From: an uncultured Actinomycetota bacterium | Lineage (GTDB): Bacteria > Actinomycetota > Geothermincolia > Geothermincolales > RBG-13-55-18 | Reading direction: 5' to 3' | DNA: 64,000 nt | NCBI GenBank assembly: GCA_964510515.1 | Contig: CAZEAU010000001.1 | Coordinates: 100,503 to 164,502, forward strand | Notes under the pieces: model-generated | Told to the model about the DNA's origin: nothing | The model's database searches: none | Seen by the model: only the letters and a program-made list of their open reading frames with translations | Part shown: positions 46,642 to 64,000 of the stretch, in pieces | Layout: each line of letters begins with the position of its first letter | Position numbering within the stretch: position 1 is the first letter of the stretch | Position numbers and translations under genes: made by a program

Positions 46642-47502
46642 ATGAGGATCAACGGCGAAACCCGACTGGTAGGCATCATCGGCCACGAGATCGGCTACAC
46701 CATGTCACCGGCGATGCACAATGCCGCGTTCGACGCACTGGGCATGAACTGGGCCTACGTCCCCCTGCGCGTCCCCCCGCAGCAGTTGCAGCCCGCCCTG
46801 CACGGTCTGCGCGCCTGCGGCTTCAGGGGATTCAACGTGACTATCCCCCACAAGGTGGAGAGCGTGCGTTATCTGGATGAGACCAGGGGGCCGTCTGCCT
46901 TGCTTGGGGCGGTCAACACCGTGGTCAACGAGGGGGGAAGGCTGCTCGGCTACAATACCGACGTCGAGGGCTTTCGCTCCTTCCTGGCTGAGGCCGGCGT
47001 GCCCGCGGGCGGCTCATGCGCGCTGCTCTTGGGCGCGGGCGGCGCGGCGCGCGCCGTCGCGCTCGCGCTGGCGCAGGCGGGAGCCGGGCGCATCTACGTC
47101 ATCAATCGCACGCCGCAGCGTGCGCAGGAGCTGGCGGCCCTGTTAAAGAGGGCGGCGCCGGGGACCGAGATATCTGTAAGGACGTACGACAGCGTGGGCT
47201 CGCTGGTCCTGCGGGAATGTGACCTGGCGATCAACTGTATCCCCGCCGCCGGCTCTGGGGGGGTGGCCCTGCCCCTGGACTACGAGGCTTTTGGCGAGGG
47301 GAAGTGGGCGATAGACATCGGGTATGCGGGGGCGGGGTCGGCATTCCTGAGGGAAGCCGCCGCTCGGGGGGCGAAGACGGCCGACGGCGCGGGCATGCTC
47401 GTCCACCAGGCCGCCGCCTCCTTTCGCCTGTGGACGGGAAGGCCGGCCCCGCTGGGCGAGATGAAGAGCGCCTGCCTCGGCGAGCCGGCCGGAGAAGGAT
47501 AA
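46642..47502 (+). CDS. aroE: shikimate dehydrogenase AroE
   Basis: LVGIIGHEIGYTMSPAMHNAAF...GFNVTIPHK...GYNTDVEGF...LLGAGGAARAV Rossmann motif. Confidence 0.92.
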   Translation: MRINGETRLVGIIGHEIGYTMSPAMHNAAFDALGMNWAYVPLRVPPQQLQPALHGLRACGFRGFNVTIPHKVESVRYLDETRGPSALLGAVNTVVNEGGRLLGYNTDVEGFRSFLAEAGVPAGGSCALLLGAGGAARAVALALAQAGAGRIYVINRTPQRAQELAALLKRAAPGTEISVRTYDSVGSLVLRECDLAINCIPAAGSGGVALPLDYEAFGEGKWAIDIGYAGAGSAFLREAAARGAKTADGAGMLVHQAAASFRLWTGRPAPLGEMKSACLGEPAGEG

Positions 47503-47521
47503 CGGCAAGAGGATAAGCGGT

Positions 47522-49189
47522 ATGCAGAAACCGAAGAAAGAAAAGCTGGGACAGATACTCATCAGGAACCGCATCATCGATGAAGAGCAGCTCCGGCAGG
47601 CCTTGGAGCGGCAGGCGGAGACGGGCGAATCGTTGGGCAGGGTTCTCATCGAATTGAAGATGGTGAGCGAGGGCGCCCTGACCTCCGTGCTCGCCCGCCA
47701 GATAGGGTTGAAATTCGCCGACCTCGGAACCTTCGACGTTGACATCTCCGCCTGCTCCCTGGTGAGCGCGGAGGTAGCCAGGCGCTACACCCTCATCCCG
47801 GTGGGCTTCAACGGGGACCGCCTGATGGTGGCCATGGCCGACCCCACCAACGTCTTCGCCCTGGACGACGTCCGTATCATGACCGGGATGCAGGTCGAGC
47901 CGCTCGTGGCCACCAAGGAGGATATCGTCGCCGCCATCAACCGCTACTGCCGCTCGGATACGGACATGGACATAACCACGGAAGATTTGGTGGAGGGCGA
48001 GGTGGAGGAGGACGTCGAAGCGGTTGTCGATGACGCTCCCATAGTGAAGTACGTGAACCTGCTCATCTCCGAGGCGGTCAACGACCGCGCCGCGGACGTG
48101 CACATAGAGCCCATGGAGCATGACGTGAGGGTGCGCTTCCGCATCGACGGGGTGCTGCACGAGATACGCAGGAATCCCAGGCAGATCCACCCCGGCGTGG
48201 TGGCCAGGATAAAGGTCATGGCGGACATGAACATAGCGGAGAAGCGCCTGCCCCAGGACGGCAGGGCTTCGGTGGACATCAGGGGCAAACAGATCGACCT
48301 GCGCGTGGCCTCGCTTCCCACCATACACGGCGAAAAGGTGGTGCTGCGCGTCCTCGACAAGAGCGCATCGCTGATGAGCCTGCAGGACCTGGGTTTCAGC
48401 GAGGACATCCTGGAGGTGTATTCGCGCAGCTTCCACAAGCCCTACGGCACCATCCTGGTCACCGGCCCCACCGGCAGCGGCAAGACCACCACCCTCTACG
48501 CCACCCTCAACGTGCTCAACAGCATCAAGCAGAACATCATCACCGTGGAGGACCCGGTGGAGTATCGCCTGCCCCTCATCAATCAGGTGCAGGTGCATTA
48601 CAAGGCCGGCCTGACCTTCAGCGCCGCGCTGCGCTCCATCCTGAGATGCGACCCCGATATCGTCATGATCGGCGAGATCCGCGACCCGGAATCAGCCCAG
48701 ATAGCCATCGAGTCGGCGCTTACCGGGCATCTCGTCCTCTCAACCCTGCATACCAACGACGCCCCCAGCGCGCTGACCCGCCTGCTGGAGATGGGCATAG
48801 AGCCTTTCCTCATCGCATCGGCGGTGGACTGCGTGAGCTCGCAGAGGCTGGCGCGAAAGCTGTGCGAGCGCTGCAAGGAGGCCTATGAGCCCGACCCGGA
48901 ATACCTGGAGAAGGTCAGGTTCAGCTGGGAAAACGGGCAGGAAAGAGTCCTTTACCGGCCCAGAGGCTGCCCCGCCTGCAACAACACCGGCTACAAGGGA
49001 AGGGTGGGCGTTTACGAGGTGCTGGAGGTTACGGAGGATATAGAACGCCTGGTGGCCAAGAACGCCCCCCACGTCGAGATCGCCGCGGCGGCGCGCGCGG
49101 AGGGGATGAGGACCATGCGTGAAGAGGGCTTCGTCAAGGTCAGGGAGGGCATGACTTACATCGACGAGGTCTTGAGGGTCATCATGTGA
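47522..49189 (+). CDS. pilB: type IV pilus assembly (extension) ATPase PilB/GspE family
   Basis: N-terminal GSPII domain, Walker A GPTGSGKTT, Asp/His boxes, C-terminal tetracysteine CPAC...zinc motif. Confidence 0.92.
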   Translation: MQKPKKEKLGQILIRNRIIDEEQLRQALERQAETGESLGRVLIELKMVSEGALTSVLARQIGLKFADLGTFDVDISACSLVSAEVARRYTLIPVGFNGDRLMVAMADPTNVFALDDVRIMTGMQVEPLVATKEDIVAAINRYCRSDTDMDITTEDLVEGEVEEDVEAVVDDAPIVKYVNLLISEAVNDRAADVHIEPMEHDVRVRFRIDGVLHEIRRNPRQIHPGVVARIKVMADMNIAEKRLPQDGRASVDIRGKQIDLRVASLPTIHGEKVVLRVLDKSASLMSLQDLGFSEDILEVYSRSFHKPYGTILVTGPTGSGKTTTLYATLNVLNSIKQNIITVEDPVEYRLPLINQVQVHYKAGLTFSAALRSILRCDPDIVMIGEIRDPESAQIAIESALTGHLVLSTLHTNDAPSALTRLLEMGIEPFLIASAVDCVSSQRLARKLCERCKEAYEPDPEYLEKVRFSWENGQERVLYRPRGCPACNNTGYKGRVGVYEVLEVTEDIERLVAKNAPHVEIAAAARAEGMRTMREEGFVKVREGMTYIDEVLRVIM

Positions 49190-49408
49190 GGGGTCATCAT
49201 CTGAGCGCGCCCGCATATTGGGGTGAAAGAATCGGCGTCCGCGGCCGATATCAAGATGGGACGGGCAGGCAGGCGGCCGCGCAGCACAACCTGGGAACAT
49301 GGAGCGGGGCGGGTGGGAGGAGCGCTCTTCCCCACACGGCCCAAGGGTACGGCCCGAGCACACGGCCCGAGCGCACGGTACGGGAGGAACGGGAGAGGAG
49401 GAAGGGCT

Positions 49409-50473
49409 TTGACCAAGCTTGATATCAATGAGCTTCTGGAAGAGGTGCTGGTGAGGGGGGCCTCCGACCTGCACCTCACCGTCGGGACCCCGCCGGTCAT
49501 GCGCATCAACGGCACCCTTATGCGCCTGGAGGAATATCCTCGCCTTACATCCAACGATACCCGCGACATGGTCTACAGCATACTCGCCGCGAGGCAGAGG
49601 GAGCAGTTGGAGAGCAACCTCGAATACGATCTCTCCTACTCGGTGCCCGGAAGCGCGCGTTTCCGCGTCAACGCCTATTTTCAGAGGAACAGCATCGGGG
49701 CGGCCTTCCGCATCATCCCCTATCGCATCAAGTCGGTGGAGGAGCTGCAGCTCCCCCAGGTCATCCACGAGTTCTGCATGCTGCCGCGCGGCTTCGTCCT
49801 CGTCACCGGGCCGACCGGTCAGGGCAAGTCCACCTCGCTCGCGGCCATGATCAACATCATCAACGAGACCCGCAACCTGCATATCATCACCGTCGAGGAC
49901 CCCATTGAGTTCCTGCACGTGCACAAGAGTTGCATCGTGAACCAGAGGGAGGTGGGGGGGGACACGCATTCCTTTTCCAATGCTCTCAAGTACGTCCTGC
50001 GCCAGGATCCGGACGTCATCCTGGTGGGCGAGATGAGGGACCTGGAGACCATCTCCACCGCGCTCACCGCGGCGGAGACCGGGCACCTGGTGTTCGCGAC
50101 CCTGCATACCCAGGACGCTCCGCAGACCATAGACCGCATCATCGACGTCTTTCCCACCTATCAGCAGCAGCAGGTGCGTATGCAGCTGGCCAGCACCATA
50201 CAGGCCATTGTCACCCAACAGCTCCTGCCCACTAAGGACGGGCAGTCCCGCATACCGGCGGTGGAGGTGATGGTGGCGACCTCGGCCATCCGCAACCTCA
50301 TCCGCGAGGCCAAGGCGCACCAGATATATTCCTCCATGCAGGCGGGAGGGCAGTACAAGATGCAGACCATGGACCACTCCATCGCGGCGCTCTTCAAGCG
50401 CGGGCTGGTCTCCTACGAGGTGGCCATGGCGAGGTGCAGCAACCGCGAGGAGATGGAGCGGCTGATCGGCTGA
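49409..50473 (+). CDS. pilT: type IV pilus retraction ATPase PilT (TTG start after GGAGAGGAGGAAGGG)
   Basis: LEEVLVRGASDLHLTVGTPPVMRINGTL, Walker A GPTGQGKST, AIRNLIRE motif. Confidence 0.92.
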   Translation: MTKLDINELLEEVLVRGASDLHLTVGTPPVMRINGTLMRLEEYPRLTSNDTRDMVYSILAARQREQLESNLEYDLSYSVPGSARFRVNAYFQRNSIGAAFRIIPYRIKSVEELQLPQVIHEFCMLPRGFVLVTGPTGQGKSTSLAAMINIINETRNLHIITVEDPIEFLHVHKSCIVNQREVGGDTHSFSNALKYVLRQDPDVILVGEMRDLETISTALTAAETGHLVFATLHTQDAPQTIDRIIDVFPTYQQQQVRMQLASTIQAIVTQQLLPTKDGQSRIPAVEVMVATSAIRNLIREAKAHQIYSSMQAGGQYKMQTMDHSIAALFKRGLVSYEVAMARCSNREEMERLIG

Positions 50474-50549: not shown

Positions 50550-50715
50550 AGGAAAGCTTCGCCGGGGGTAAAGAAATGGGGCGCCGGGAACGATACTAAT
50601 TGCGGTCGGTTGACGGCGGCGGCGGTGCGGAGATAGAAGCGGCCCGGATGCGCGCGAGATGACGGCGAAAGGATGTCCTCAAGCGTTCGGAAGCGCCGAG
50701 AAAAGGAGAGAGGCG

Positions 50716-51939
50716 GTGGCTCAAACCTATTCATACAAGGTGAGGGACCGGCAGGGCAAGGTCATCTCCGGCAAGCTCGAGGCGGAAAACGTGAGCACCG
50801 TATCGCAGCGCCTGCGCGAGATGGGCTATTTCGTCATCGAGGTCGAGGAGGAGAAGGTATCCCTGGGCAAGAAGGAGCTGCACATCTTCAAGCCCAAGGT
50901 CAAGGGCAAGGACATCACCATCTTCACCCGCCAGTTCGCGACCATGATCAACGCCGGCCTGCCCCTGGTGAAATGCCTGAACATCCTCTCGGAGCAGACG
51001 GAGAGCCCGGTGCTCACGGAGGTCATCTCGGACGTGCAGCACGAGGTGGAGATGGGGCGCTCCCTCTCTGAGGCCATGGCCAAGCACCCCGAGGTCTTCA
51101 AGGAGCTGTACTCCAGCATGGTCAAGGCGGGAGAGATAGGCGGCGTGCTCGACGACGTGCTGCTGCGCATAGCCACCACCCTGGAGAGCGAGGACGAGAT
51201 CCGGCGCCGCATCAAATCGGCATTGACCTATCCCATAGCCATGCTGGGCATATCCGCCCTGCTCCTGGTGGTGATGCTCGTCTTCGTGGTGCCCACCTTC
51301 GAGAAGATGTTCGCGGACATGGGGGCGACGATGCCCATCCTGACCAGGGTTATCATGAGCTTCAGCAATTTCCTGGTGAGCTGGAAGGGGGCGCTGTTCA
51401 TACTGGCCGTGATAGGGGGCGTGTTGCTCCTGCGCCGCTGGATCAAGACGCCGGGCGGCCGCAAGAAACTCGACGCCGTGAAGCTGAAGATGCCCGTATT
51501 CGGGGACCTGTTCCACAAGATGTCCCTCTCCCGCTTCTCCCGCACCCTGGGGACACTGGTGGCCAGCGGCGTGCCCATTCTGCAGGCCCTGGAGATAACC
51601 TCGAAGACGGTGGGGAATGTGCTGGTGGCGGAGGCCGTGGACAACGTTCGTGCGGGGGTCAAGGAGGGGGACTCCATCGCCAGGCCCCTGGGCCAGAGCG
51701 ATCTCTTCCCCCCCATGGTGACCCAGATGCTGGCCATCGGGGAGGAGACCGGAGCCCTGGATACCATGCTCAACAAGGTCTCGGACTTCTACGACTCGGA
51801 GATCTCCTCGACCGTCGAGGCGCTGACCTCCCTGCTGGAGCCGCTGATGATCGTCGTTCTGGGCCTGGTCGTGGGGATCATCGTCATCGCCCTCTATATG
51901 CCGATATTCTCGATGATAACCCAGTTTACCGGGGAGTAG
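50716..51939 (+). CDS. pilC: type IV pilus inner-membrane platform protein PilC/GspF family (GTG start)
   Basis: Two T2SSF repeats, full-length PilC similarity. Confidence 0.9.
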   Translation: MAQTYSYKVRDRQGKVISGKLEAENVSTVSQRLREMGYFVIEVEEEKVSLGKKELHIFKPKVKGKDITIFTRQFATMINAGLPLVKCLNILSEQTESPVLTEVISDVQHEVEMGRSLSEAMAKHPEVFKELYSSMVKAGEIGGVLDDVLLRIATTLESEDEIRRRIKSALTYPIAMLGISALLLVVMLVFVVPTFEKMFADMGATMPILTRVIMSFSNFLVSWKGALFILAVIGGVLLLRRWIKTPGGRKKLDAVKLKMPVFGDLFHKMSLSRFSRTLGTLVASGVPILQALEITSKTVGNVLVAEAVDNVRAGVKEGDSIARPLGQSDLFPPMVTQMLAIGEETGALDTMLNKVSDFYDSEISSTVEALTSLLEPLMIVVLGLVVGIIVIALYMPIFSMITQFTGE

Positions 51940-52008: not shown

Positions 52009-52038
52009 TTGACAACTAAATTTTATTACTTATAGAAT
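52009..52038 (+). promoter_or_regulatory. candidate strong sigma70 promoter (TTGACA-18 nt-TAGAAT) in an approximately 130-nt AT-rich island
   Basis: Perfect -35 hexamer; island (gttgttgaaagagtatattattgacaactaaattttattacttatagaatattgatg...) contrasts with the roughly 68% GC background; upstream of the HTH gene and pilMNO. Confidence 0.4.
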
Positions 52039-52172
52039 ATTGATGAAGAGTGAAGAAATTCAAATGAAGCTAAAGTTGGTTGAAGATGTTGGCGATGAAG
52101 TATATTGGCCTGTGGAGTTGGGTATTGTTGAGGTGGGCCGGGGCGGAGAGGCTATCGCTGACAGGAGGATAG

Positions 52173-52361
52173 GTGCCGGGGGACAGGTTCAGCAACAAAC
52201 TGCTAACGGTGAACGAGGTCGCCGATATCTTGAGGGTGTCGAACATGACGGTGTACCGCCTGGTGAAGAGCGGGCAGATACCAGCCATACGGGTAGGCAA
52301 GAACTACCGCATCAAGGAAAGCGACGTCAACGATTACCTGACCAGAGGGACGCAGAGTTAG
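52173..52361 (+). CDS. small helix-turn-helix DNA-binding protein (excisionase/MerR-type HTH_17 family)
   Basis: 62 aa; LLTVNEVADILRVSNMTVYRLVKSGQIPAIRVGKNYRIKESDVNDYL is the excisionase-family HTH signature; GTG start after AGGAGG. Confidence 0.6.
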   Translation: MPGDRFSNKLLTVNEVADILRVSNMTVYRLVKSGQIPAIRVGKNYRIKESDVNDYLTRGTQS

Positions 52362-52383
52362 GGCCTGGAGCGGGGGGTATGGC

Positions 52384-53445
52384 ATGAGTCCAAGGAAGGC
52401 CGCGGTATCGCTGGGGCTGGATATAAGCACGAGTTCGCTCAAGGTGGCCGAGGTGACGGCGGGCAAGGGCGAGCCCGTCCTCTCCAACCTGGGCATGGTA
52501 CGCATCCCGGACGGCGTGGTGCGAGACGGCGAGGTCGAGGACGGCGTGACCCTGGCCGAATCACTGAAGGAGCTGTGGTCCCAGGCCGGCATCAGGGGGA
52601 AAACGGTCATACTTGGCATCGCCAACCAGAGGGTCATCGTGCGCCCCATCGAGCTGCCCTACATGGAGAGAGAGGAGCTGGACAGCGCCCTGCGCTTCCA
52701 GGTGCAGGAGTTCATCCCCATCCCCATCGAGGACGCCATCCTGGACTTCGACATCATCGAGGAGTTCATGACCGCGGAAGAGGAGCGCATGCTGACGGTG
52801 CTCCTGGTGGCCGCGCACAAGGAGATGATACAGAGTTTCATCGAGGTCTTGAAGGCGGCCGGATTGTCGCTTTCCGCCATCGACCTCAAGGCCTTCGCCG
52901 TTCCGCGCGCCTTGATCCCCCTGGGGGTGCTGCAGGCGGGGTACGAGGAGCGCGAGGCGGAATGCATGATCAACGTGGGCGCGGGCATGACCAATATAAC
53001 CATCCTCAAGGACAACGTGCCGCGTTTCGCCAGGTTCCTCCTCAGGGGTGGGGACGATTTCGTGCGCGCCATGGTCAACCGCCTGGACATGGAGTGGGAG
53101 GAGGCGGAAGCGATCAGGCTGGGCAGGGTGGTGCACGATGAGGGCGGCAAGGTGCTGGAGCAGGAGATCCTCAACTTCGTGGGTGAGATCAGGCGCTCCA
53201 TAGATTATTATATAGCCCAGACCCAGGAGAGGGCCTTTTCCAAGGTGGTGCTCTCCGGCAGCGGCTCGGTCACGGTCAACCTGGTGCAGGAGATGGGCAA
53301 GGGGCTCAGGCTCCCCATGGAGGTGGGGAGGCCCCTTCAGAACCTGCAGCTGGGCAGGTTGCCCTATAGCGCGGAGGAGTTGATGGAGATAGAACCCTCG
53401 CTCGCGGTCAGCGTCGGGCTTGCGCTGCGGGAGGTAGTGGAATGA
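52384..53445 (+). CDS. pilM: type IV pilus assembly protein PilM (actin-like ATPase fold)
   Basis: Full-length PilM similarity (SLGLDISTSSLKVAEV...VILGIANQRVIVRPIELP). Confidence 0.88.
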   Translation: MSPRKAAVSLGLDISTSSLKVAEVTAGKGEPVLSNLGMVRIPDGVVRDGEVEDGVTLAESLKELWSQAGIRGKTVILGIANQRVIVRPIELPYMEREELDSALRFQVQEFIPIPIEDAILDFDIIEEFMTAEEERMLTVLLVAAHKEMIQSFIEVLKAAGLSLSAIDLKAFAVPRALIPLGVLQAGYEEREAECMINVGAGMTNITILKDNVPRFARFLLRGGDDFVRAMVNRLDMEWEEAEAIRLGRVVHDEGGKVLEQEILNFVGEIRRSIDYYIAQTQERAFSKVVLSGSGSVTVNLVQEMGKGLRLPMEVGRPLQNLQLGRLPYSAEELMEIEPSLAVSVGLALREVVE

Positions 53446-54293
53446 CCAGGATAAACCTGCTCCCACCGGAGATAAGGGAGAAGGCCGGGCGAGTCCGGCT
53501 CGCGCCGTGGTACATACTCATGGGCGTGATCACCGTGGCCGTCGTCGTGGGGCTCTTCCTGCTCTTCAGCGCCCAGGAAGCGGGCAAAGAGGATACGCTG
53601 AAGGAGAGGGAACAGGAGCTCTCGGACCTGCAGAAACAGACCAAGCCCATGGAGAAGTTCGAGGCGCAGCAGGGCGAGCTGCAGGCGCTGGAGGGCCTGT
53701 ACAAGCAGGCCAACGCGGGCAGGGTGGCCTGGGCGCAGATGCTGAACGACCTGGCCATGTACGTGCCGGAGGGCCTGGCCACGGCGTCCAACCCCAGGGC
53801 GCCGGCCATCTGGCTGGTGCACATGACCATCGACGCCCAGCCGCTGGAGGCGCTGGCGGGGGCGCCGGAAGGCCAGGCGACGGGCGGCGGCACGCCGATA
53901 GTGCTGGAGGGCTACGCCACCCCGGCCTGGCTGAGCGTGCAGACCTGGCTGCCGCGGGCGAGCGATTTCAAGGCGAGGGGCTTCCTGGACTCCTACCCCT
54001 ACTACTACTATTTCCGCGGCCACCCCAAGGTGGCGGAGTTCTTCGTCAGGCTGCAGGGCATGGAGCAATGGGCCGACATCTGGATAGTGAGCTCCACCCA
54101 GGCCACCATCAGCGAGACGAGGCATGTGACTAATCCCGAGAGCGGGGAGCGGGAGGAAGAGAGCTTCTCGGACTGGGCCGTCAGCTTCGCCATCAACGCC
54201 GATTGGAATCCCGACAGCGCCATCTGGCACGGGACCGCGGGCGGGGAGGACGCGGTCGCGCCGAGCGAGGAGACGGGGGGTGGCGAGCGATGA
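53442..54293 (+). CDS. pilN: PilN-like fimbrial assembly protein (elongated, 283 aa)
   Basis: MTRINLLPPEIREK N-terminus, single TM, coiled coil; overlaps pilM and pilO by 4 nt. Confidence 0.75.
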   Translation: MTRINLLPPEIREKAGRVRLAPWYILMGVITVAVVVGLFLLFSAQEAGKEDTLKEREQELSDLQKQTKPMEKFEAQQGELQALEGLYKQANAGRVAWAQMLNDLAMYVPEGLATASNPRAPAIWLVHMTIDAQPLEALAGAPEGQATGGGTPIVLEGYATPAWLSVQTWLPRASDFKARGFLDSYPYYYYFRGHPKVAEFFVRLQGMEQWADIWIVSSTQATISETRHVTNPESGEREEESFSDWAVSFAINADWNPDSAIWHGTAGGEDAVAPSEETGGGER

Positions 54294-54868
54294 AGATCAA
54301 GGCCGGCTCGGGGATATGGCTGCTGGCGGGGGTGCTGGTGTGCATAATCATCCTCGTCCTCGCGCTTTTCCTCATCGTCTTTCCCCAGAAGAACAAGGTG
54401 GGCGAGACCGAGGAGGAGATAAACAGGGTGGAGCAGAGCATAGTCCTGGAGCGCAACCGCCTGGTGCAGTTAAAGCAGTACGAGCAAGACCCGGAGCAGT
54501 TCATCCGCCAGATAGAGGTCTTCAAGGAACGCATGCCGGAGAACGTGGGGCTCGCCGACATCATCGAGTACATAGATCGCGCCGCGGAGGAGGCGGGACT
54601 GGACTTCGTCTCCATAACGCCGCAGCTCCCGGTGTCCGCGGGGGGCTTCTACACCGTCAGCTTGGAGACCGTTTTCAACGGGCGCTATTTCAACCTGGTG
54701 GAGTTCTTCAACCGCATCGAGAGGCTTCCGCGCTCCTTCAAGGCCGTCTATGTAGATATCGCGGCCGGCGATGCCGGCCTGCCTTATATCCAGGTGAACG
54801 TGCGTTTCAGGGCTTTTTTCACCACCAACCAGGGGATAGAGGGCCTGGCTGGGGCAGCGGCGGGCTAA
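54290..54868 (+). CDS. pilO: PilO-like pilus assembly protein
   Basis: N-terminal TM plus coiled coil plus C-terminal ferredoxin-like PilO domain; position after pilN. Confidence 0.7.
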   Translation: MKIKAGSGIWLLAGVLVCIIILVLALFLIVFPQKNKVGETEEEINRVEQSIVLERNRLVQLKQYEQDPEQFIRQIEVFKERMPENVGLADIIEYIDRAAEEAGLDFVSITPQLPVSAGGFYTVSLETVFNGRYFNLVEFFNRIERLPRSFKAVYVDIAAGDAGLPYIQVNVRFRAFFTTNQGIEGLAGAAAG

Positions 54869-55610: not shown

Positions 55611-55682
55611 GGAGATGTCGGGAGGGGGGCGGCTTCCCGCCGCCCCCCCTTTGCATTTAAGGGAGGGAAGACGGACGCGGCC

Positions 55683-56840: not shown

Positions 56841-57436
56841 GGCGGGGGGCGGACTCGGGCGAAAGCGGGCCTCGCCCCCGCCAGGCACGGCCGCGCAACC
56901 TGGCCCTCGTCGGCTTCATGGGAGCGGGGAAGAGCAGCGTGGGACCGCTGCTGGCGCGGGAGCTGGGCCTGCATTTCGTGGAGCTGGACGAGGAGGTAGC
57001 GGCGAGGGCGGGAGCGAGTATAGCGGAGATATTTGAGCGCGAGGGAGAGGGGGGCTTCCGGGAGCGCGAGAGCGAGGCCTTGCGGGAAGCGCTGGGGGAG
57101 GGAGGCAGGGTAATCTCCTGCGGCGGGGGCATCGTCACGCGGGAGGAGAACGTGCGGTTGCTGCGCTCCGCATGCCGCGTCTACCTGCTCGAGGTGTCGC
57201 CTGCCACGGCCGTGCGCAGGCTGCGCGGCGGGAGCGCAAGGCCGCTCCTGGGGGGCGCCGACCCGCGGGGAGAGGTGGAGAGGTTGATGGGCGAGAGGGC
57301 GGGCAGGTATGCGGCTGCGGCGCACGAGGTCGTGGCGACCGATGCGGGCAGCCCGCAGGAGATAGCGGAGGAGATAGCGGCGAGATGGCGCAGGTACAGG
57401 TGCGGGCGGGAGGGAGAGAATACCCCGTCCTCATAG
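56837..57436 (+). CDS. aroK: shikimate kinase AroK (GTG start overlapping the aroC stop; start approximate)
   Basis: Walker A LVGFMGAGKSSVG, LID region; between aroC and aroB. Confidence 0.8.
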   Translation: MRRGADSGESGPRPRQARPRNLALVGFMGAGKSSVGPLLARELGLHFVELDEEVAARAGASIAEIFEREGEGGFRERESEALREALGEGGRVISCGGGIVTREENVRLLRSACRVYLLEVSPATAVRRLRGGSARPLLGGADPRGEVERLMGERAGRYAAAAHEVVATDAGSPQEIAEEIAARWRRYRCGREGENTPSS

Positions 57437-58506
57437 GGCGAAACCTTCTGGAGGGCGAGCTTTCCCGCCACGTGGCGGGCATGCGGCCGCGCATGCTGAC
57501 CGTGGTCAGCCATCCCGCGATAAAGGAGCTGCACGGCAGGAGGCTGTCGGCGGCCCTCGCGGCGGCGAGGGGAGGCGGCGCCCGGGCGGCATGGTTTCTC
57601 TTCCCCCACGGGGAGGAGAACAAGACCCTGGCGACGCTCGAGCGCGGCCTGCGCGCGCTGCTCGCGTACGGCATGACCAGGGAGGACCTGCTGCTGGCCT
57701 TCGGGGGCGGCGTGGTGGGCGACCTGGGCGGTTTCCTCGCCGCCACCTATATGCGCGGCATACGCTACCTGCAGGTGCCCACCACGCTCATGGCCATGGT
57801 GGACTCCTCCATAGGGGGCAAGACGGGCGTGGACCTGCCGGGAGCGAAGAACGCCGCGGGCGCCTTCTATCAGCCCTGGGGGGTGTATGCCGACACCGGC
57901 CTGCTGGGCACCCTGCCGCGGCGCGAACTTCGCAGCGGTATGGCCGAGGTGGCCAAGTACGGCTTCCTCTACGATGAGGCGATACTCGAGGAGGTGGAGG
58001 GCTGGGTGGCCGCCCCCCCCGCCGGCGCGGAAGGCCTGGAGGGCATGGTGGCCAGATGCGCCGCCCACAAGGCGAGGGCGGTGGCCGCGGACGAGCGCGA
58101 CCTCGGCGGGGAGCGGGCCATGCTCAACTACGGCCACACCTTCGGGCACGCCATCGAATCGTCCTGCGGATACGGGAGGCTGCGCCACGGCGAGGCGGTG
58201 GCTGCGGGCATGCTCATGGCAGCGAGGCTCTCCGAGCTCCTCGGCCTCGCCGGGGAGGGCCTGTGTGCGCTCCACGCGCGCGCGTTGCTGCCCATGCTCG
58301 ACGAGGGCGCGCTGGGCCTCGGGTACGAGCGCGGCCGCATCATGGCCGACATGCGCGCGGACAAAAAGAGGGGCCGGAGCATGAGATTCGTGCTCCTGGA
58401 GGGGCCGCGGGCGCCCCGCCTGATGGAGGTGGGCGACGAGAAGGTGGTGGAGGCGGCGGTGGACGATGTCCTGGAGATGCTGAAGGGGGCGGAGAGATGC
58501 CTTTAG
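57385..58506 (+). CDS. aroB: 3-dehydroquinate synthase AroB
   Basis: GGGVVGDLGGFLAATYMRGIRYLQVPTTL NAD-binding and metal-binding motifs; start approximate (overlaps aroK frame). Confidence 0.9.
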   Translation: MAQVQVRAGGREYPVLIGRNLLEGELSRHVAGMRPRMLTVVSHPAIKELHGRRLSAALAAARGGGARAAWFLFPHGEENKTLATLERGLRALLAYGMTREDLLLAFGGGVVGDLGGFLAATYMRGIRYLQVPTTLMAMVDSSIGGKTGVDLPGAKNAAGAFYQPWGVYADTGLLGTLPRRELRSGMAEVAKYGFLYDEAILEEVEGWVAAPPAGAEGLEGMVARCAAHKARAVAADERDLGGERAMLNYGHTFGHAIESSCGYGRLRHGEAVAAGMLMAARLSELLGLAGEGLCALHARALLPMLDEGALGLGYERGRIMADMRADKKRGRSMRFVLLEGPRAPRLMEVGDEKVVEAAVDDVLEMLKGAERCL

Positions 58507-58937
58507 TGGCGGTGGTGAACGGGCCCAACCTCAACCTGCTCGGCGCGAGGGAGCCGGGCGTCTACGGGCGCGCGACCTGGGAGGAGGCGAGGGCGGGCAT
58601 GGAGCAAAGAGCGCGCGCGCTGGGCCTGGAGGTGGAGTTCTTCCAGAGCAATCACGAGGGGGGCCTCATCGACCACCTGCAGGGCTTGCGGGGGCGCGCC
58701 GCGGCGCTCGTCATCAACCCCGGCGCGCTCACCCACTACAGCTATGCCCTGCGCGACGCCGTGGCCGACCTGGGATTGCCCACCGCCGAGGTGCATATAA
58801 GCAACATCTTCGCGCGCGAGGACTGGCGGTCCGTCTCCGTCATCTCCCCCGCGGCCACGGGACTCGTGGCCGGCTTCGGGGTTTTCGGCTACGAGCTCGC
58901 GCTCGAGGCCGTTGCGAGCGCGCTGCGCGGAGGCTGA
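58497..58937 (+). CDS. aroQ: type II 3-dehydroquinate dehydratase AroQ
   Basis: MPLVAVVNGPNLNLLGAREPGVYG...HISNIFARE motifs. Confidence 0.93.
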   Translation: MPLVAVVNGPNLNLLGAREPGVYGRATWEEARAGMEQRARALGLEVEFFQSNHEGGLIDHLQGLRGRAAALVINPGALTHYSYALRDAVADLGLPTAEVHISNIFAREDWRSVSVISPAATGLVAGFGVFGYELALEAVASALRGG

Positions 58938-59162
58938 TGCGCAAGGCCCGCCGAGGCGGCGAAACAGCCTGGCGGAAAAGGTATATTCGCAGGCAGATGG
59001 CCCTGCGTAACATTACCGTAACAACATTCACACATATTTATCTTGGCATGCCTAAAGGGCGGCCTTACAATTTTCGATAGACGGATTGAAGCATTCCTGC
59101 CTTCCGCGGCCTGTGCGGGCACCGGGCAGGGATGGGGATGCGCGGAGCGAGAGAGACCTTTT

Positions 59163-59738
59163 ATGGAAGCGAAGGGTTCGAGAAGGAGGAAAGGCTGCCT
59201 GGCGAGGCCGGGGGCGGAAGGGCCGCTCCGCACCTCCCAGGAGGGCTTCACGCTCATCGAGCTGTCCATCGTGGTGATGATACTGGGCATCATCCTGACC
59301 ATCGCGGGGCTGAACTACGCCAACATCAGCAGAGGGATCAACATGGACGGCGCAAAGAAACAGATAGAGGCCGCCCTGAACCAGGCGAAGACGGCCGCGC
59401 GGCAGGAGAATGTCAGCTATCGCATGATGGTCTATCCCTCCAGTCATGCCTCTCACCCCAACAGTTACGAATTCCTGCATAACGTCGAGGACGGAGGTAC
59501 GTGGGAGATGACCGCAGTGGACCTGACCGCATCCGGCGAGAGGGTCAACGGCGGGTCCGACCGCTGGCTGGTGCAACTGGAGGGCAACGTCCAGATAAGC
59601 GGCGGCGAGGTGATGGAGATAACCTTCAGGCCCGTAGGTACAATCATGGATGTCACTCCGGCGACAATCGAGCTGAGGAGCGGGAACCAGGCGGGGAGCG
59701 TCTCCGTAGACGCGCTGGGGAGGGTAACGTTGCATTGA
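59163..59738 (+). CDS. type IV pilin-like protein with long (about 28-aa) leader and prepilin-peptidase-type N-terminus
   Basis: ...QEG|FTLIELSIVVMILGIILTIAGL class III signal/N-methylation motif. Confidence 0.7.
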   Translation: MEAKGSRRRKGCLARPGAEGPLRTSQEGFTLIELSIVVMILGIILTIAGLNYANISRGINMDGAKKQIEAALNQAKTAARQENVSYRMMVYPSSHASHPNSYEFLHNVEDGGTWEMTAVDLTASGERVNGGSDRWLVQLEGNVQISGGEVMEITFRPVGTIMDVTPATIELRSGNQAGSVSVDALGRVTLH

Positions 59739-59840
59739 CGGATATGAGATATGAGAAGAGATTTTGATGACAAACGGGGTTATCGTGCAGGCAAACATCA
59801 GCATCGGGGGCTTCGGGCAAAAAGGGAGGCGGTTCCTTTG

Positions 59841-61943
59841 ATGTGGCTGCGAAGGAGAGGCGGCAAAGAAGGCGGCTTCACTCTAGCGGAGATACTCGTG
59901 GCGGGCCTGATACTCGTGGTCGCCCTTATACCCATAGTGAGGATGTTCGACACCTCGTTCGCGGGCATAAGGTCTTTATCAGGCGTGCATAAAAGCGTCG
60001 CCTTGGGACAGAAGGTCATGGAGGAAATAAAGTCCATGCCCTACTATGTCCCCTGCGATGAGGAGCAGGGAAAAGTAGACATCGATGACCATTTCTGGGG
60101 TGACCGCAGCCCCGTCAACTACAATCCAGCGAGCGGTGATGAGCCGGACTGGGAAAGCATACCCGAGGTCACGATCCCGAAATACGCCTACGGGAACATC
60201 GATAAACACCACGAGTACCGCGTCGGGGTGAAGCTGTCCTACATGGGCGAGAACATGAAGCCAGTGGAGATGAAGGAGGACTGGGGGCCCATGAAGGTTG
60301 CTTATGACCACCCCCGGGACAAGGATAACAGGAGCATCCAACTCCTGCTCGTCCAGGTGAACGTTTACACCATGAAGGGACAGGACGAGGTCGAGGAGCA
60401 TCGCGTGGAGGCCATCGTTACCGCCACTGAAGCGGTGTACGGCTTGGGGATTACACGCATCATTGTCGACGGCCCAGACGAAATACTGGGAAGCCGCAGC
60501 GACGCGGCGGCCCACGATCCCAATAAAACCATCGACGTCACCATCGAGGGATGGGGCTTCATGCCCACTAACGACCCCAATAAGAAATTCGAAGTCCAGC
60601 TGGAAAGGCCCGATTTCAACCCCGTGGAGATCACCATCCCCAATATCAACGCCTGTACGGATACCGTCATCAAGGGCAAGGTGACGCTTGGCACAAGCAA
60701 AAATAACAACGACGCAAAGAACAAATGGAAGCCAAGAGAACCGATCGGGTACTGGTCCGTGAAAGTAAGGCAGGACATAACGTCCACCTACCTCTACAAC
60801 GGCTTCATCTGTGAATACCCCGCCCCAAGGATATCTGACTACGGGAACGATGCCAATCATCCCAACCTACCGTTCAAGCTTCCCGCCATGTCGAAGGTGG
60901 GTTACAAGGGATGGGGCACGCTGCATCTCAAGGTGCAGGGAGGATACTTCATAAATATCTCCGGGGTCGCCAGCGGTCCCACCGTCAGGCTCGTCGAGGA
61001 CGTGGAGGGGAGCCCTCACGCTGTTACTGGAGTCATCACCAGCCTGAACACCACGGATAATGGCTACAGCAGTTCGGGATGCGAGATGCTGGTGGAATTC
61101 GACATCACTGGAGAGGATGTACCACCCGGCGACTACAGGCTGGAGGTCATCAACACCCAGCCCGAGGTGGTCGGGCATGTTTCCTCGGGGTTGAGCGAGC
61201 AAGCCTACAGGATAGAGGAGGCCCCCGCCTGGCAGGCCACCATAGACGACTTCAGCCCCGACTCCGGATACGGGTTCTACGAGAATTACTACGATGTCCC
61301 GTCCACCATCACCGGCACCAACCTCTCGGAGGTGAGCATGGTGGTCATCCGCAGCGGGGACGGCGTGCTCTACGACATAACTGACGACTGCACCCTCGGA
61401 GAAGACGGGCAGATCCCGGTGAACCTCAATCTCATAGGCTGCGACCACGAGAAGGGCTGGGAGATGAGGGCCTACCACTCCTCGGGGGCTTACGCCGCCA
61501 GGGATTTCGACGTGACACTGGGCAGGGCGGTGATGCTCGAGAAGGGCGACCCAAAGAAGCCGGTGAGGATAGAGCGGTATGAAAAGAACATTTTGGGGAA
61601 TTGGGTCTACAATAGCGTGAGTGAGGAGACTGGCACGGAACCCGCGAACCTGGCTTATGCCCGCAAGTCCGCTATTTTCACGGAAAGGGCTGCCATTTTC
61701 GAGGTGAAGGGCATGGGCTTTCCCATGAACGGCACCACCTATCTGGAGATGTACGGGGGCGGGAAGGTGTGGGCCGGAAACTACAACGTGCAGACCGACA
61801 GGGAAAGCAAGCTGGTCTGGATAAGGTCCGACAGGTTCATCATGCCCAATACCACCTGGGACGACGGGGGAATAAAGGTACGGAACGGCGTCGGGCAGGA
61901 ACACAATGTCGTGTCGCGCTGGAGGCTCATGGATACATGGTAG
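59841..61943 (+). CDS. large (700-aa) prepilin-type N-terminal domain protein (minor pilin / tip-associated candidate)
   Basis: GGFTLAEILVAGLILVVALIP prepilin motif after RBS AAAGGGAGG; beta-rich remainder. Confidence 0.65.
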   Translation: MWLRRRGGKEGGFTLAEILVAGLILVVALIPIVRMFDTSFAGIRSLSGVHKSVALGQKVMEEIKSMPYYVPCDEEQGKVDIDDHFWGDRSPVNYNPASGDEPDWESIPEVTIPKYAYGNIDKHHEYRVGVKLSYMGENMKPVEMKEDWGPMKVAYDHPRDKDNRSIQLLLVQVNVYTMKGQDEVEEHRVEAIVTATEAVYGLGITRIIVDGPDEILGSRSDAAAHDPNKTIDVTIEGWGFMPTNDPNKKFEVQLERPDFNPVEITIPNINACTDTVIKGKVTLGTSKNNNDAKNKWKPREPIGYWSVKVRQDITSTYLYNGFICEYPAPRISDYGNDANHPNLPFKLPAMSKVGYKGWGTLHLKVQGGYFINISGVASGPTVRLVEDVEGSPHAVTGVITSLNTTDNGYSSSGCEMLVEFDITGEDVPPGDYRLEVINTQPEVVGHVSSGLSEQAYRIEEAPAWQATIDDFSPDSGYGFYENYYDVPSTITGTNLSEVSMVVIRSGDGVLYDITDDCTLGEDGQIPVNLNLIGCDHEKGWEMRAYHSSGAYAARDFDVTLGRAVMLEKGDPKKPVRIERYEKNILGNWVYNSVSEETGTEPANLAYARKSAIFTERAAIFEVKGMGFPMNGTTYLEMYGGGKVWAGNYNVQTDRESKLVWIRSDRFIMPNTTWDDGGIKVRNGVGQEHNVVSRWRLMDTW

Positions 61944-61960
61944 GTCAAGGAGATGGAAGA

Positions 61961-62503
61961 ATGGACTTACGGGACAGGGTGAGGGGCGCGGGCGGCGAAG
62001 GCGGTTTCACCCTTGCCGAGCTCCTCGTTTTCCTGGCGATAATGGTGATATTCCTGATAGGGGTCGGGAGCATGATATCGTCGGGAGCCAGGAGTTCCGC
62101 CGCATCCCAGGGCCTTATCAGGATGGAGAACCAGGCCAACGAAGCCATGGTGGCCATAACCAGGCAGATAAGGGTCGCCAACGACATCGATGCCGCGAGC
62201 GGCACGCACTCGATAACCTTCAGCGGCTACCTTGACGGCTCAGTGCTGGAAACGGTGACCCTGTCGGTGCAGGAAGGGTACCTGATGCGAGGAGAAGACC
62301 CCTGGATAGCGGGCGTGGAGAGCATGCACCTCTCTTACTACGACGACAGGGGGAACCTGCTGGGTGCGGGAACCCCAGGTTGGAACACAAAGGTGAACAG
62401 GGTGGGGTTGGAGCTGGTTTTTGCCAGGGAGTCCATGGGGATCAGGCTGTCGAGAATATTCCAGGGCAGCGCCACCCTGAGGAACGACCTCGACGGGACT
62501 TGA
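61961..62503 (+). CDS. prepilin-type minor pilin
   Basis: GGFTLAELLVFLAIMVIFLIGV motif; about 180 aa; alternative in-frame start at 61937. Confidence 0.65.
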   Translation: MDLRDRVRGAGGEGGFTLAELLVFLAIMVIFLIGVGSMISSGARSSAASQGLIRMENQANEAMVAITRQIRVANDIDAASGTHSITFSGYLDGSVLETVTLSVQEGYLMRGEDPWIAGVESMHLSYYDDRGNLLGAGTPGWNTKVNRVGLELVFARESMGIRLSRIFQGSATLRNDLDGT

Positions 62504-62520
62504 CGAGGAGTTGATGGCAT

Positions 62521-64000
62521 ATGACGGGCGCGGTCAGGCGGCTTGTGAAGGGGGAGCGCGGCGGAACCCGGGACGAGGGAGGGTTCGCCATCATCATAGT
62601 GCTGGTCGCGCTGGTGATGCTGTCGGTCCTGGGGGCAATGAGTTTGCTGGTGATGGTCTCAGCCCTGCGGGGTGTGAGCAACCTGAAACCGGAGGACAAG
62701 GCGTTCCAGGTGGCCGAGGCAGCCCTGCACGTAGCGCATGCGAAGATCGTGAATAACGAGATCGGGGATGATGCGGTTGAACTGAAGGACGAAGGCGACA
62801 TCCTCGATGGCGAATACAACATAAGGATAGAGCGTGTCGTGGGATCTACTACCGATTACGTGGTTTGCTCTGAGGGTATTTACAGGCAGAAGGCAGGCGG
62901 GCAAGGAGAGGAAGAAGGAACGGTTTACCGGCGCAGGATCAGGGAAGAGGTCTCTTACAGCGGCATGCAGGCCTTCGATGTCATGCGCAAATACCTCCTC
63001 TTCGCTAACAATGACATCAACATAACCCTCGACGACCTATTTAACCTAAGCGTGCCGGCGACGGTAAACGGCTCCATCAGGGCGGAGAGGAATGTCAACA
63101 TAAGGAACCAGCCGGCGGTCAGCCTGGGTGACGGCTTGACCTTCAACGGAGATGTCGAGGGCGTAAGCAAGGTGTATGTGGAGACTGCCCCCAAGATCGC
63201 GGGGGGGGTGAACACCAAAATACTGGGAGATATAAAGACCGGGATGGTTGGCGGGCCTAATAACGGGGTAGTTGACCTGTATGTGGATGGCGGATTGGTC
63301 TCCGGCGGTAAGATAGGTGGTGCCGCGAACTTCGCATGGTCGTTGTTGCACGGGTGGCACACGACTGATAAGTGGAAAATATACTGCGGCACGCTTTTGC
63401 AGAGGAAGAACTTTTGGGGAGATCACTTCGTTGGGGATCGCATGAACGAACCGGGCTGCGAGCCTGTCTATGTCCCAGAACCGGATTTCGCCTACTATAA
63501 AGCCTTGGCGCAGGAGCAGCACAAACTGACGGGAAAGAACTATGTCCAGGGAGACCTCAACCTCAACGGCAGAGAAATCAACGAGTTCGTGCCGCCCGGC
63601 TCCTCCGTGGCCGTGATCTACGCGACCGGCAATATAAACCTGCGGGGCTTACTGTGGAACCAGGGCAATGTCAAGGCGACCTTCATCTGCGAGGGCAATT
63701 TCACCTCCACGGAGACGTTCACCGCCCTCTACAACATGCAGTGCCAGGTGATAGCCGGGGGCGACGCTACCTTCAACAACAGCTGGTCGTTTCCGCAGAT
63801 TGTCAGGGATGACACGGCCTTCTTCGTGTGGGCGGGCAACGACGCCAACATCAACATGGGCATGTGGTCGGGGAACTCCATGCAGGTGACGGCCATGAAC
63901 GACGTCAACGTGAGCAGCGCGAACCTGTTCGACCTCTGCTGGGTCAGATACAGGCCTCCCGACGTGGATATCGCCGGCTTTTCCATCGACATCACCGTCA
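62521..64000 (+). CDS. PilX-like minor pilin/pilus-associated protein, 3' end truncated by window edge (not in ORF track because it runs off the end)
   Basis: Own translation from ATG 62521: MTGAVRRLVKGERGGTRDEGGFAIIIVLVALVMLSVLGAMSLLV... (PilX N-terminal type), open to position 64000; RBS GAGGAG 8 nt upstream. Confidence 0.6.
   Translation, partial: MTGAVRRLVKGERGGTRDEGGFAIIIVLVALVMLSVLGAMSLLVMVSALRGVSNLKPEDKAFQVAEAALHVAHAKIVNNEIGDDAVELKDEGDILDGEYNIRIERVVGSTTDYVVCSEGIYRQKAGGQGEEEGTVYRRRIREEVSYSGMQAFDVMRKYLLFANNDINITLDDLFNLSVPATVNGSIRAERNVNIRNQPAVSLGDGLTFNGDVEGVSKVYVETAPKIAGGVNTKILGDIKTGMVGGPNNGVVDLYVDGGLVSGGKIGGAANFAWSLLHGWHTTDKWKIYCGTLLQRKNFWGDHFVGDRMNEPGCEPVYVPEPDFAYYKALAQEQHKLTGKNYVQGDLNLNGREINEFVPPGSSVAVIYATGNINLRGLLWNQGNVKATFICEGNFTSTETFTALYNMQCQVIAGGDATFNNSWSFPQIVRDDTAFFVWAGNDANINMGMWSGNSMQVTAMNDVNVSSANLFDLCWVRYRPPDVDIAGFSIDITV

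Follow-up and report, generated by a model that had tools for sequence, protein, structure and literature searches.

A predicted PilT-containing type IVa pilus gene set interleaved with shikimate pathway genes in an uncultured Actinomycetota bacterium

According to reviews, Tad/Flp pili are the only type IV pili that have been studied experimentally in Actinobacteria (B. breve and M. luteus), and type IVa pili (T4aP) have been detected in monoderm Actinobacteria by surveys (Denise et al., 2019; Pelicic, 2019, PMC6916266). In monoderm T4aP the PilP protein, whose role is to link PilNO to the secretin, is missing (Pelicic, 2019, PMC6916266; Pelicic, 2023), and in those of monoderm Firmicutes PilO is also large and the PilN motif is C-terminal (Pelicic, 2019, PMC6916266). 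In Proteobacteria, aroK and aroB adjoin the pilMNOPQ cluster on its downstream side, "consistent with literature precedent" (Weaver et al., 2020, PMC7545093). Here we analyzed a stretch of 64,000 nucleotides (nt) from an uncultured Actinomycetota bacterium (contig CAZEAU010000001.1, positions 100,503 to 164,502 of the forward strand; the whole stretch is called the window below), for which an earlier note, made from the sequence alone, had described a monoderm-type type IV pilus gene set interleaved with the shikimate pathway operon. We concluded that this is very probably a conserved T4aP locus of the phylum, at an inherited position in an aro/efp housekeeping neighborhood, with an aro linkage that represents ancient synteny and not a functional operon. 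The pil-aro linkage of Proteobacteria and, by surveys, the presence of T4aP in Actinobacteria were already known; among the papers searched, none explicitly described an interleaving of pil and aro genes for Actinomycetota, or pili for Geothermincolia.

The gene order on the + strand is aroE, pilB-pilT-pilC, a promoter with a helix-turn-helix (HTH) gene of the HTH_17 family, pilM-pilN-pilO and a PilP-like gene, aroC-aroK-aroB-aroQ, and four prepilin-like genes. Every gene named in the earlier note was found on this strand, at or near the expected position, and the housekeeping aro genes were identified by Pfam in the midst of the pilus-assembly and pilin genes; coordinates agree with the gene calls of public contigs that encode identical proteins. 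The pil and aro genes ahead of the pilin genes are as follows (aa, amino acids; TM, transmembrane).

46621/46642-47502, + strand: aroE, shikimate dehydrogenase, a non-pilus neighbor (Pfam Shikimate_dh_N, SDH_C, Shikimate_DH)
47522-49189, + strand: pilB, extension ATPase (TIGR02538, 664.7 bits, cutoff 675.65; Pfam T2SSE, 470 bits, and MshEN)
49409-50473, + strand: pilT, retraction ATPase of 354 aa (TIGR01420, 477.1 bits, cutoff 319.1)
50659-51939, + strand: pilC, platform protein (two Pfam T2SSF matches, 230.8 bits)
52173-52361, + strand: HTH_17 excisionase-family protein of 62 aa (TIGR01764, 69.7 bits, cutoff 28.8)
52384-53445, + strand: pilM (Pfam PilM_2, 173 bits; TIGR01175, 217 bits, cutoff 133)
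53442-54293, + strand: pilN, 283 aa (partial NF045709 match, INLLPPE motif, position between pilM and pilO)
54290-54868, + strand: pilO, 192 aa (Pfam PF04350, 46.5 bits, cutoff 22)
54882-55610, + strand: predicted PilP-like protein of 242 aa (TM helix, invariant WVLNDPFYP, C-terminal PilP/GspC-HR beta domain)
55683-58937, + strand: aroC-aroK-aroB-aroQ (Pfam matches; gene calls in the source contigs)
55683-56840, + strand: aroC, chorismate synthase
56837-57436, + strand: aroK, shikimate kinase
57385-58506, + strand: aroB, dehydroquinate synthase
58497-58937, + strand: aroQ, type II dehydroquinase

When the motor proteins were scored against the models of related machines, TIGR02538 was the top-scoring model for PilB, slightly below its equivalog cutoff, and the best NCBIfam models for PilC were PilC models, all under their equivalog cutoffs. 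The competence models scored well under the PilB and PilC models (ComGA 253 bits, cutoff 300; ComGB 152 bits, cutoff 240), the TadA-type model TIGR03819 reached only 49-51 bits (cutoff 373), and Pfam scans of the window open reading frames (ORFs) found no Tad components, i.e., no TadB/C, TadZ or Flp pilins. The type II secretion models also remained under cutoff (GspE 598 bits versus 630; GspF 415.5 bits versus 424), and the locus departs from type II secretion in that PilT and PilM-type proteins are present and a secretin is not. Since the Com and Tad models score low and PilT and PilMNO are present, the locus is classified by sequence as a PilT-containing type IVa pilus set and not as a Com or Tad system; the PilT-retractable type IV pilus of the earlier note thus survives the objection which that note itself had raised, that the homologues might belong to competence or Tad systems. 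The Tad/Flp (type IVc) pili belong to the same superfamily and likewise need a prepilin peptidase, but PilT and PilMNO set the window locus apart from them. PilT is 90-94% identical throughout the clade of Candidatus Solincola (the Solincola clade, see below). The N terminus of PilB carries an MshEN-type cyclic di-GMP (c-di-GMP) motif (NF053729, 60.5 bits, cutoff 38), and because both of its 24-residue halves, KLGQILIRNRIIDEEQLRQALERQ and SLGRVLIELKMVSEGALTSVLARQ, are found in residues 8-60 (47543-47701), pilus extension is probably responsive to c-di-GMP.

The assembly genes follow the order pilM-N-O-P without Q, and aroC comes directly after the PilP-like gene. PilN begins with MTRINLLPPE and has one TM segment; over residues 3-108 it aligns with the PilN portion of NF045709, the model for the Amuc_1101 PilM-N fusion (E 3.2e-10), its C-terminal half has no Pfam match, and a PDB sequence search of PilN returned nothing useful. 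INLLP is presumably the PilM-binding motif of diderm systems. A PilN of 283 aa had been considered much longer than usual in the earlier note; this view was dropped, since lengths of 228-283 aa occur in all the actinobacterial clades examined; the INLLP motif, too, is shared by other clades of the phylum. The 242-aa protein gave no Pfam or NCBIfam match at E values up to 0.01, and its homologues are all annotated "hypothetical" and limited to the clade. In an AlphaFold2 model made with a 36-sequence alignment, a TM helix (residues 26-51) is followed by a disordered linker with the WVLNDPFYP motif and by a small C-terminal beta domain (predicted local distance difference test score, pLDDT, >95) with the PilP/GspC-HR fold; OutC and DotF were listed with this fold comparison. 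The predicted anchor is the modeled TM helix, and the protein has no lipobox. A hidden Markov model of the beta domain finds an ORF directly upstream of aroC in all Geothermincolia loci and, at E values of 1e-5 to 1e-11, in the Anoxymicrobiaceae-like clade, with weak matches in Frankiales and Nitriliruptoria loci. By its predicted fold the 242-aa protein is therefore PilP-like, as had been proposed.

A tblastn search at E values up to 0.01, in which GspD and HofQ of E. coli served as queries, found no secretin on either strand of the window or in 81 related loci, and a search with three prepilin peptidases found none on either strand of the window, in line with the earlier note on both counts. 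Its term "monoderm-type" fits the locus in the missing secretin and fails to fit it in the INLLP motif of PilN and the retained PilP/GspC-HR protein. Nothing else in the locus was as unexpected as a PilP-like protein without a secretin. But for the secretin that it lacks, the predicted machine resembles those of diderm bacteria (P. aeruginosa, N. meningitidis, T. thermophilus), with which it has in common PilB, PilT, PilC, PilM, a PilN with INLLP, PilO, an HR protein in the PilP position, GspH-I-J-K-like minor pilins and aro genes directly after the pilMNOP genes. It differs from them in that pilQ is absent, the PilP-like protein has a TM helix instead of a lipoprotein signal and no Pfam PilP match, aroC and aroQ are added, and all modules are clustered with aroE. 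With the T4aP of monoderm Firmicutes (S. sanguinis, C. perfringens, C. difficile) it shares secretin-less PilB/T/C/M/N/O, clustered genes and a modular minor pilin with an extra domain, whereas the PilO of the window is small, its PilN is long with an N-terminal INLLP, and a PilP-like protein is present. It is conceivable, and we put this forward only tentatively, that the locus is a vertically inherited, secretin-less descendant of the ancestral pilMNOPQ-aro neighborhood that is also seen in Proteobacteria; the PilP-like protein, the INLLP-bearing PilN and the aro genes right behind the PilP-like gene would then mark where pilQ was lost at monodermy, and the partner of the HR domain would have changed, for example to a cell-wall-spanning component.

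Four prepilin-like genes follow aroQ.

59163-59738, + strand: 191-aa prepilin, GspH/FimU-like (Pfam N_methyl, 27.4 bits; GspH, PF12019, 24.2 bits, cutoff 21)
59841-61943, + strand: 700-aa modular prepilin, a GspI-like pilin module followed by predicted IPT/TIG-type immunoglobulin-like (Ig-like) domains
61937-62503, + strand: 188-aa prepilin-like minor pilin in the GspJ/PilW position (class III signal G/FTLAE)
62521-64000, ending 35 nt past the window, + strand: PilX/GspK-like large minor pilin of 504 aa (Pfam PilX_N, 25.0 bits, cutoff 25.5)

A six-frame motif scan of the window found only three E5-type class III signal peptides, all of them minor-pilin-like. The 191-aa protein also matches TIGR01708 (E 6.9e-11, below cutoff) and PpdA-like models, and its leader (MEAKG...QEG/FTLIE) has 28 aa if the ATG at 59163 is used. 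It had been proposed as the major pilin candidate with a 28-aa leader; the leader can stand with that start codon, but because the protein matches GspH (PF12019, TIGR01708) it is more likely a FimU/GspH-type minor pilin than a major pilin. The 700-aa prepilin-motif protein reported earlier was found as described. Its family is narrow (70 cluster representatives among 1.84 billion); the relatives have no Pfam domain except N_methyl, seen in 9 of 25, residues 101-700 of the window protein have no Pfam match, and a PDB sequence search of the protein gave nothing useful. The AlphaFold2 model (mean pLDDT 87) has the long alpha-1 helix and the small head of a pilin, along with beta-sandwich domains in a row, and the protein is, on this model, a putative tip adhesin. 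The 188-aa protein has weak NCBIfam matches to PRK10557 and ComGD. The 504-aa protein, whose full length is seen in the longer contig L006, lacks Glu5, an absence that is typical of GspK/PilX. H-I-J-K is the order of the minor-pilin operons of type II secretion systems and T4aP, and because the four window genes follow it they were read as encoding a priming/tip complex. The pilin genes diverge fast, with a median identity of 28-38% in the clade between metagenome-assembled genomes (MAGs) whose PilT proteins are ~93% identical.

Next, we examined whether the arrangement is a peculiarity of this genome. With a PilM profile, 80 loci were retrieved from species-representative genomes and searched with the window proteins by tblastn (individual loci are given as L numbers); they are labeled Geothermincolia, Anoxymicrobiaceae, Frankiales/Frankiaceae, Acidothermaceae, Nitriliruptoraceae, Euzebya and Mycobacteriales MAGs. 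Among relatives that carry a name, PilM is closest to Candidatus Solincola (74-80%) and Candidatus Geothermincolales, and the NCBI taxonomy places Solincola in the class Candidatus Geothermincolia of Actinomycetota; by these relatives and by its gene order, the window comes from a Candidatus Solincola-like member of Geothermincolia. Downstream sequence of at least 5 kb after pilM was available for 53 loci. In 51 of them aroC lies on the strand of pilM and no more than 6 kb beyond it, and the pilM-aroC distance is typically ~2.2-2.3 kb, the exact room for pilN, pilO and a third gene. The segment between aroE and aroC, said in the earlier note to be variable in the phylum, was indeed a variable or occupied slot in the related loci. 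E. coli K-12 has aroK-aroB behind its homologous hofMNOPQ genes, and in the Proteobacteria as in the window the assembly genes precede those for shikimate kinase and dehydroquinate synthase on the same strand; the window differs in having aroC before aroK, aroQ after aroB, aroE and pilBTC upstream, and no pilQ. Because of the 51 of 53 loci and the proteobacterial linkage, we consider the interleaving, on this comparison of gene orders, to be one case of an old and widely conserved neighborhood, i.e., inherited gene order and not a new system. Median identities within the Solincola clade are 93% for pilT, 94% for the HTH gene, 84% for pilB, 82% for pilC and 81% for pilM on the pil side, and 61% for aroE, 67% for aroC, 58% for aroK, 57% for aroB and 63% for aroQ on the aro side.

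A prepilin peptidase (PilD) was absent from the 6 kb downstream of the window as well. PilD is present at the locus in 52 of the 80 loci, all from non-Solincola clades. In four Geothermincola-like sister loci (L023-L026), pilC is followed by one or two short pilins, PilD (A24_N_bact and Peptidase_A24), the HTH gene and pilM, and the short pilin of L023 has 107 aa and begins with MKKQEG/FTLIELMVV; pilA and pilD occupy this slot in other clades too. In two of these loci (L025 and L026) pilC is split over two adjacent tblastn segments or frames, probably by assembly-error frameshifts and not as real pseudogenes. The pilC-HTH slot holds only a non-coding gap in the window (233 nt) and in all 16 other Solincola-clade loci (250-460 nt). 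A PilD subfamily 50-55% identical to the L023 enzyme was found in dispersed loci with the layout DUF2889, pilD, sometimes two TMEM260_N/YfhO glycosyltransferase-like genes, a convergent gene for a pilin of 118-132 aa, and DUF1786; the short pilins adjoining pilD in relatives thus span 107-132 aa. The six PilD clusters that were looked up come from samples other than those of the window (SRR8925751/2, SRR176768xx). The large membrane glycosyltransferase-like genes between pilD and the pilin gene are located at 1733-6218 in L100, 3395-7796 in L101 and 2943-7285 in L102, and their position near pilD and pilA in related MAGs hints at pilin glycosylation. In four MAG submissions of the Solincola clade, the accession numbers of PilD lie within 645-1752 numbers of those of PilM:

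MDY submission: PilM MDY6796788 (PilP-like protein MDY6796791), PilD MDY6796143
MEJ submission: PilM MEJ5185511, PilD MEJ5187263
MBC submission: PilM MBC7229105, PilD MBC7230338
MDI submission: PilM MDI6832150, PilD MDI6831017

Because of these close accessions and the conservation of the motor genes, relocation of pilD and pilA of the Solincola clade to other contigs is more likely than their loss, and we infer the same for the window genome.

The pilus-linked genes extend beyond the interval of the earlier note (46642-64000): its genes are there on the + strand, and the linked genes begin ~5.5 kb further upstream (41146-46566) with the following module.

41146-41499, + strand: Roadblock/LC7 (MglB-like) protein 1 (Pfam PF03259, 42.6 bits)
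41558-41941, + strand: Roadblock/LC7 (MglB-like) protein 2 (Pfam PF03259, 55.4 bits)
41962-42372, + strand: Roadblock/LC7 protein 3, start codon uncertain (Pfam PF03259, 64.2 bits)
42469-46020, + strand: PATAN (DUF4388) protein of 1183 aa (Pfam PF14332, 126.6 bits, cutoff 25, N-terminal)
46024-46566, + strand: small Ras-like (MglA-like) GTPase of 180 aa (Pfam ATP_bind_1, Ras)

In Synechocystis the PATAN domain has PilB1 and PilC as binding partners (Han et al., bioRxiv 10.1101/2021.06.11.447907), and PATAN genes often have genes for MglA/MglB homologues in their vicinity (Han et al., bioRxiv 10.1101/2021.06.11.447907; Wuichet and Sogaard-Andersen, 2014, PMC4316618). In PDB sequence searches Roadblock protein 2 matched Robl_LC7 proteins, CvnB5 and MglB, and the GTPase gave weak matches (E ~1.5e-4) to Rab12 and T. 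thermophilus MglA. The GTPase gene lies within 1.4 kb upstream of pilB in all 15 related loci with enough upstream DNA, PATAN matches were found upstream of pilB in six loci (L010, L014, L054, L070, L078, L084), and homologues of Roadblock protein 2 adjoin PATAN-GTPase-pilB in three of them (L054, L070, L084). In Geothermincolia aroE stands between the GTPase gene and pilB, and in Nitriliruptorales-type loci the order is aroE, Roadblock, PATAN, GTPase, pilB; because the position of aroE differs in this way, the module travels with pilB and not with aroE. The tail of the PATAN protein is long, acidic and repeat-rich, and tandem repeats in its gene (45193-45695, + strand; periods of 54 and 195 nt, 88-96% matches) encode acidic, proline-rich units of this C-terminal tail. 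The module resembles the MglA/MglB and PATAN systems of M. xanthus, T. thermophilus and Synechocystis (PixE/PixG) in having a Ras-like GTPase, Roadblock and PATAN beside pilus motor genes; it differs in its three Roadblock paralogues, in a PATAN protein without a receiver domain and with an acidic tail of ~1000 aa, and in a GTPase whose closest Pfam model is ATP_bind_1. A role of the module in controlling the pilus motor in space or time may reasonably be proposed.

The predicted transcription signals of the locus are listed below.

52009-52038, + strand: sigma-70-like promoter TTGACA-18-TAGAAT, 11/12 matches, in an AT-rich gap
52069-52099, + strand: 31-nt leader motif GCTAAAGTTGGTTGARGATGTTGGCGATGAA, conserved upstream of the HTH gene
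55624-55648, + strand: terminator-like hairpin of 10 G-C pairs, followed by CTTTGCATTT
59043-59071, + strand: promoter-like site TTGGCA-17-TACAAT, 10/12 matches, seen in the window only

The -35 and -10 boxes of the promoter at 52009-52038 are conserved in the aligned intergenic regions of the Solincola clade. With 0-7 mismatches, the leader motif was found in 13 loci of the Solincola clade, where it lies 100-150 nt ahead of the HTH gene, and it is weaker in L038/L039; loci listed with it are L009-L016, L018-L021, L028 and L042, and the surrounding AT-rich leader is otherwise variable. A sequence "GTATATT..TTGAC" stands both at the -35 box and right behind the motif, so that the motif may be an operator; it may also be an RNA element. 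The only Rfam match in the leader was a chance-level snoRNA, and an upstream ORF was rejected, with substitutions even over the codon positions (8/8/10) and start and stop codons not conserved. A 115-aa ORF (52040-52387) was also rejected as the HTH gene, having no Pfam match; the real gene is the 62-aa frame. HTH_17 is among the two most conserved genes of the locus, with 84% identity where PilM has 54%, and its product probably regulates the pilMNOP unit. The hairpin, in the 72-nt gap between the PilP-like gene and aroC, has a folding energy of -33.1 kcal/mol (z -3.0 versus shuffled sequences). Strong hairpins, many of them with a T tract, are found at the same gap in many related loci with unrelated stem sequences, and because of this recurrence the structure itself appears to be maintained. 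With a hairpin ahead of aroC and promoter-like sites ahead of the HTH and pilin genes, separate transcription units are favored over obligatory read-through: most likely HTH-pilM-N-O-P-like up to the terminator, aroC-K-B-Q, and the four pilin genes, with aroE and pilB as a tight pair (gap of 19 nt). Some partial read-through may still occur.

The window has ~66% G+C, with nearly all genes on one strand, and its pilus neighborhood is bordered by housekeeping genes. Upstream are the phosphatidylinositol/phosphatidylinositol-mannoside (PI/PIM) synthesis genes, pdxS, yebC-ruvCAB, queA-tgt, yajC-secDF, relA, aspS, alaS, ruvX and mltG, and downstream, on a longer metagenomic contig, pepQ, efp, nusB, pyrR and pyrB. 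We take the series from pgsA and the PIM genes through ruvCAB, secDF, relA, aspS, alaS and mltG to aroE to be a core gene order of Actinomycetota. At 1-2726 (+ strand) genes for a CDP-alcohol phosphatidyltransferase, a lipid A-type acyltransferase homologue and a GT4 glycosyltransferase stand in a row and resemble what we assume to be the phosphatidylinositol-mannoside cluster (pgsA-acyltransferase-pimA) of Actinomycetota, which fits the taxonomy. Between mltG and the Roadblock genes, at 38267-40861 (+ strand), there are genes for a NiFe-hydrogenase-like small subunit (Oxidored_q6), a large subunit (NiFeSe_Hases N-terminus) and a 2x[4Fe-4S] ferredoxin, which presumably break the order alaS-ruvX-mltG-aroE of other actinobacteria. 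A 6S/SsrS RNA gene (30719-30906, + strand; Rfam RF00013, 61.7 bits versus a gathering score of 46.4) lies between an acetyl-CoA hydrolase/GNAT gene and an mgsA-like AAA+ gene.

In the machine that we propose, PilB with its MshEN motif would power extension on the PilC platform and PilT would power retraction. PilM, PilN, PilO and the membrane-anchored PilP/GspC-HR-like protein would form an assembly subcomplex at the cytoplasmic membrane that no secretin follows, and the four prepilin-like proteins would form the priming/tip complex, with the GspI-like member, extended by Ig-like IPT/TIG domains, as the likely adhesin. The three Roadblock (MglB-like) proteins, the PATAN protein and the MglA-like GTPase would probably control where or when the motor is active, and the HTH_17 protein, behind its near-consensus promoter, would probably regulate the pilMNOP unit, which the predicted hairpin terminator would separate from aroC, with promoter-like sites before the HTH and pilin genes. 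In the Solincola clade the short major pilin and PilD would have moved to another locus. Several points weigh against this picture. Neither a major pilin nor PilD was located in the 64-kb window or the visible 6 kb downstream, and the link of PilM and PilD by accession range is indirect. PilB scores narrowly under the TIGR02538 cutoff, PilN was identified from a model that it matches in part, together with its INLLP motif and its place among the genes, and the GspJ assignment of the 188-aa protein comes from gene order and weak matches. The terminator and promoters are predicted from sequence, and the T tract behind the hairpin is interrupted. A monoderm envelope is presumed, on the grounds of the phylum and of 81 loci in which no secretin was found. 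Pilus function and retraction are likewise predictions from sequence.

Four other explanations were weighed. The shared read-through proposed in the earlier note would make the pil and aro genes one co-transcribed super-operon, with aromatic biosynthesis and pilus assembly under common regulation. Its genes do share one strand, the gaps within HTH-pilM-N-O-P and within the overlapping or tightly packed aroC-K-B-Q genes are tiny or negative, aroE and pilB almost touch, pil-aro adjacency is nearly constant in the loci compared, and the gap from aroQ to the pilin genes showed no terminator-like site. However, the G-C hairpin with its T-rich tail before aroC, which recurs in relatives, the near-consensus promoter conserved in the clade before the HTH gene and the further site before the pilin genes weaken the proposal, and the pil genes evolve at rates very different from those of the aro genes, so that we regard a super-operon as unlikely. 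Still less probable, to the point of being hardly credible, is a horizontally acquired pil island inserted into the aro operon of this lineage. What speaks for it is the pilin-gene region (59000-64000), which has 55-59% G+C against 66-70% in the rest of the window and ~0.75 G+C at third codon positions against 0.85-0.92, and the strong divergence of pilin genes among close relatives; yet pilin genes commonly evolve fast and have an unusual composition, that of the motor and assembly genes is host-like, no integrase, tRNA or repeat boundary was found among the ORFs scanned, and the insertion points are common to Geothermincolia, Anoxymicrobiaceae-like, Frankiales, Acidothermaceae, Nitriliruptoria and Mycobacteriales MAGs.

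The missing pilA and pilD raise a further alternative, a decaying remnant from which these genes were lost and which makes no pilus. The absence of PilD and a short major pilin from the window, the 6 kb downstream and the 16 other Solincola-clade loci, with PilD kept at the locus in other clades only, would agree with decay, but every pil ORF is intact, the neighboring aro genes are less conserved across the clade than the motor genes, dispersed loci contain the PilD subfamily next to a short pilin, and the PilD accessions lie close to those of PilM in the four submissions; decay is accordingly a very improbable reading. Compatible with a conserved T4aP locus, and possible although we lean against it, is a real machine that serves mainly DNA uptake (competence) or adhesion instead of twitching motility. 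T4aP serve DNA uptake in several bacteria, according to reviews, and the 700-aa Ig-domain pilin is adhesin-like; on the other side, no comEA, comEC or dprA was found among the window ORFs scanned with Pfam, and PilT together with an MglA/Roadblock/PATAN module is associated elsewhere with motility and polarity control. A conserved T4aP locus at an inherited position is the explanation that we retain.

For the phylum, in which T4aP had been predicted by surveys and the studied pili, per reviews, are Tad pili only, the window locus and its 80 relatives suggest that a strongly conserved PilT-containing machine is widespread in deep and environmental actinobacterial lineages. This machine comes linked with an MglA-like GTPase, Roadblock proteins and a PATAN protein. 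A component of predicted PilP/GspC-HR fold is kept without a secretin, contrary to the absence of PilP from monoderms in reviews. The pilMNOP(Q)-aro order common to Actinomycetota and Proteobacteria is a deep synteny marker for arguments on pilus and outer-membrane ancestry, and the message for annotation is that the aro interleaving is inherited order and no evidence of functional coupling. If the tentative descent from a pilMNOPQ-aro neighborhood were true, the locus would be a genomic trace of the diderm-to-monoderm transition and would offer a tractable PilP without a secretin, beside a retractile pilus controlled by MglA, Roadblock and PATAN proteins, in a phylum studied for Tad pili only.

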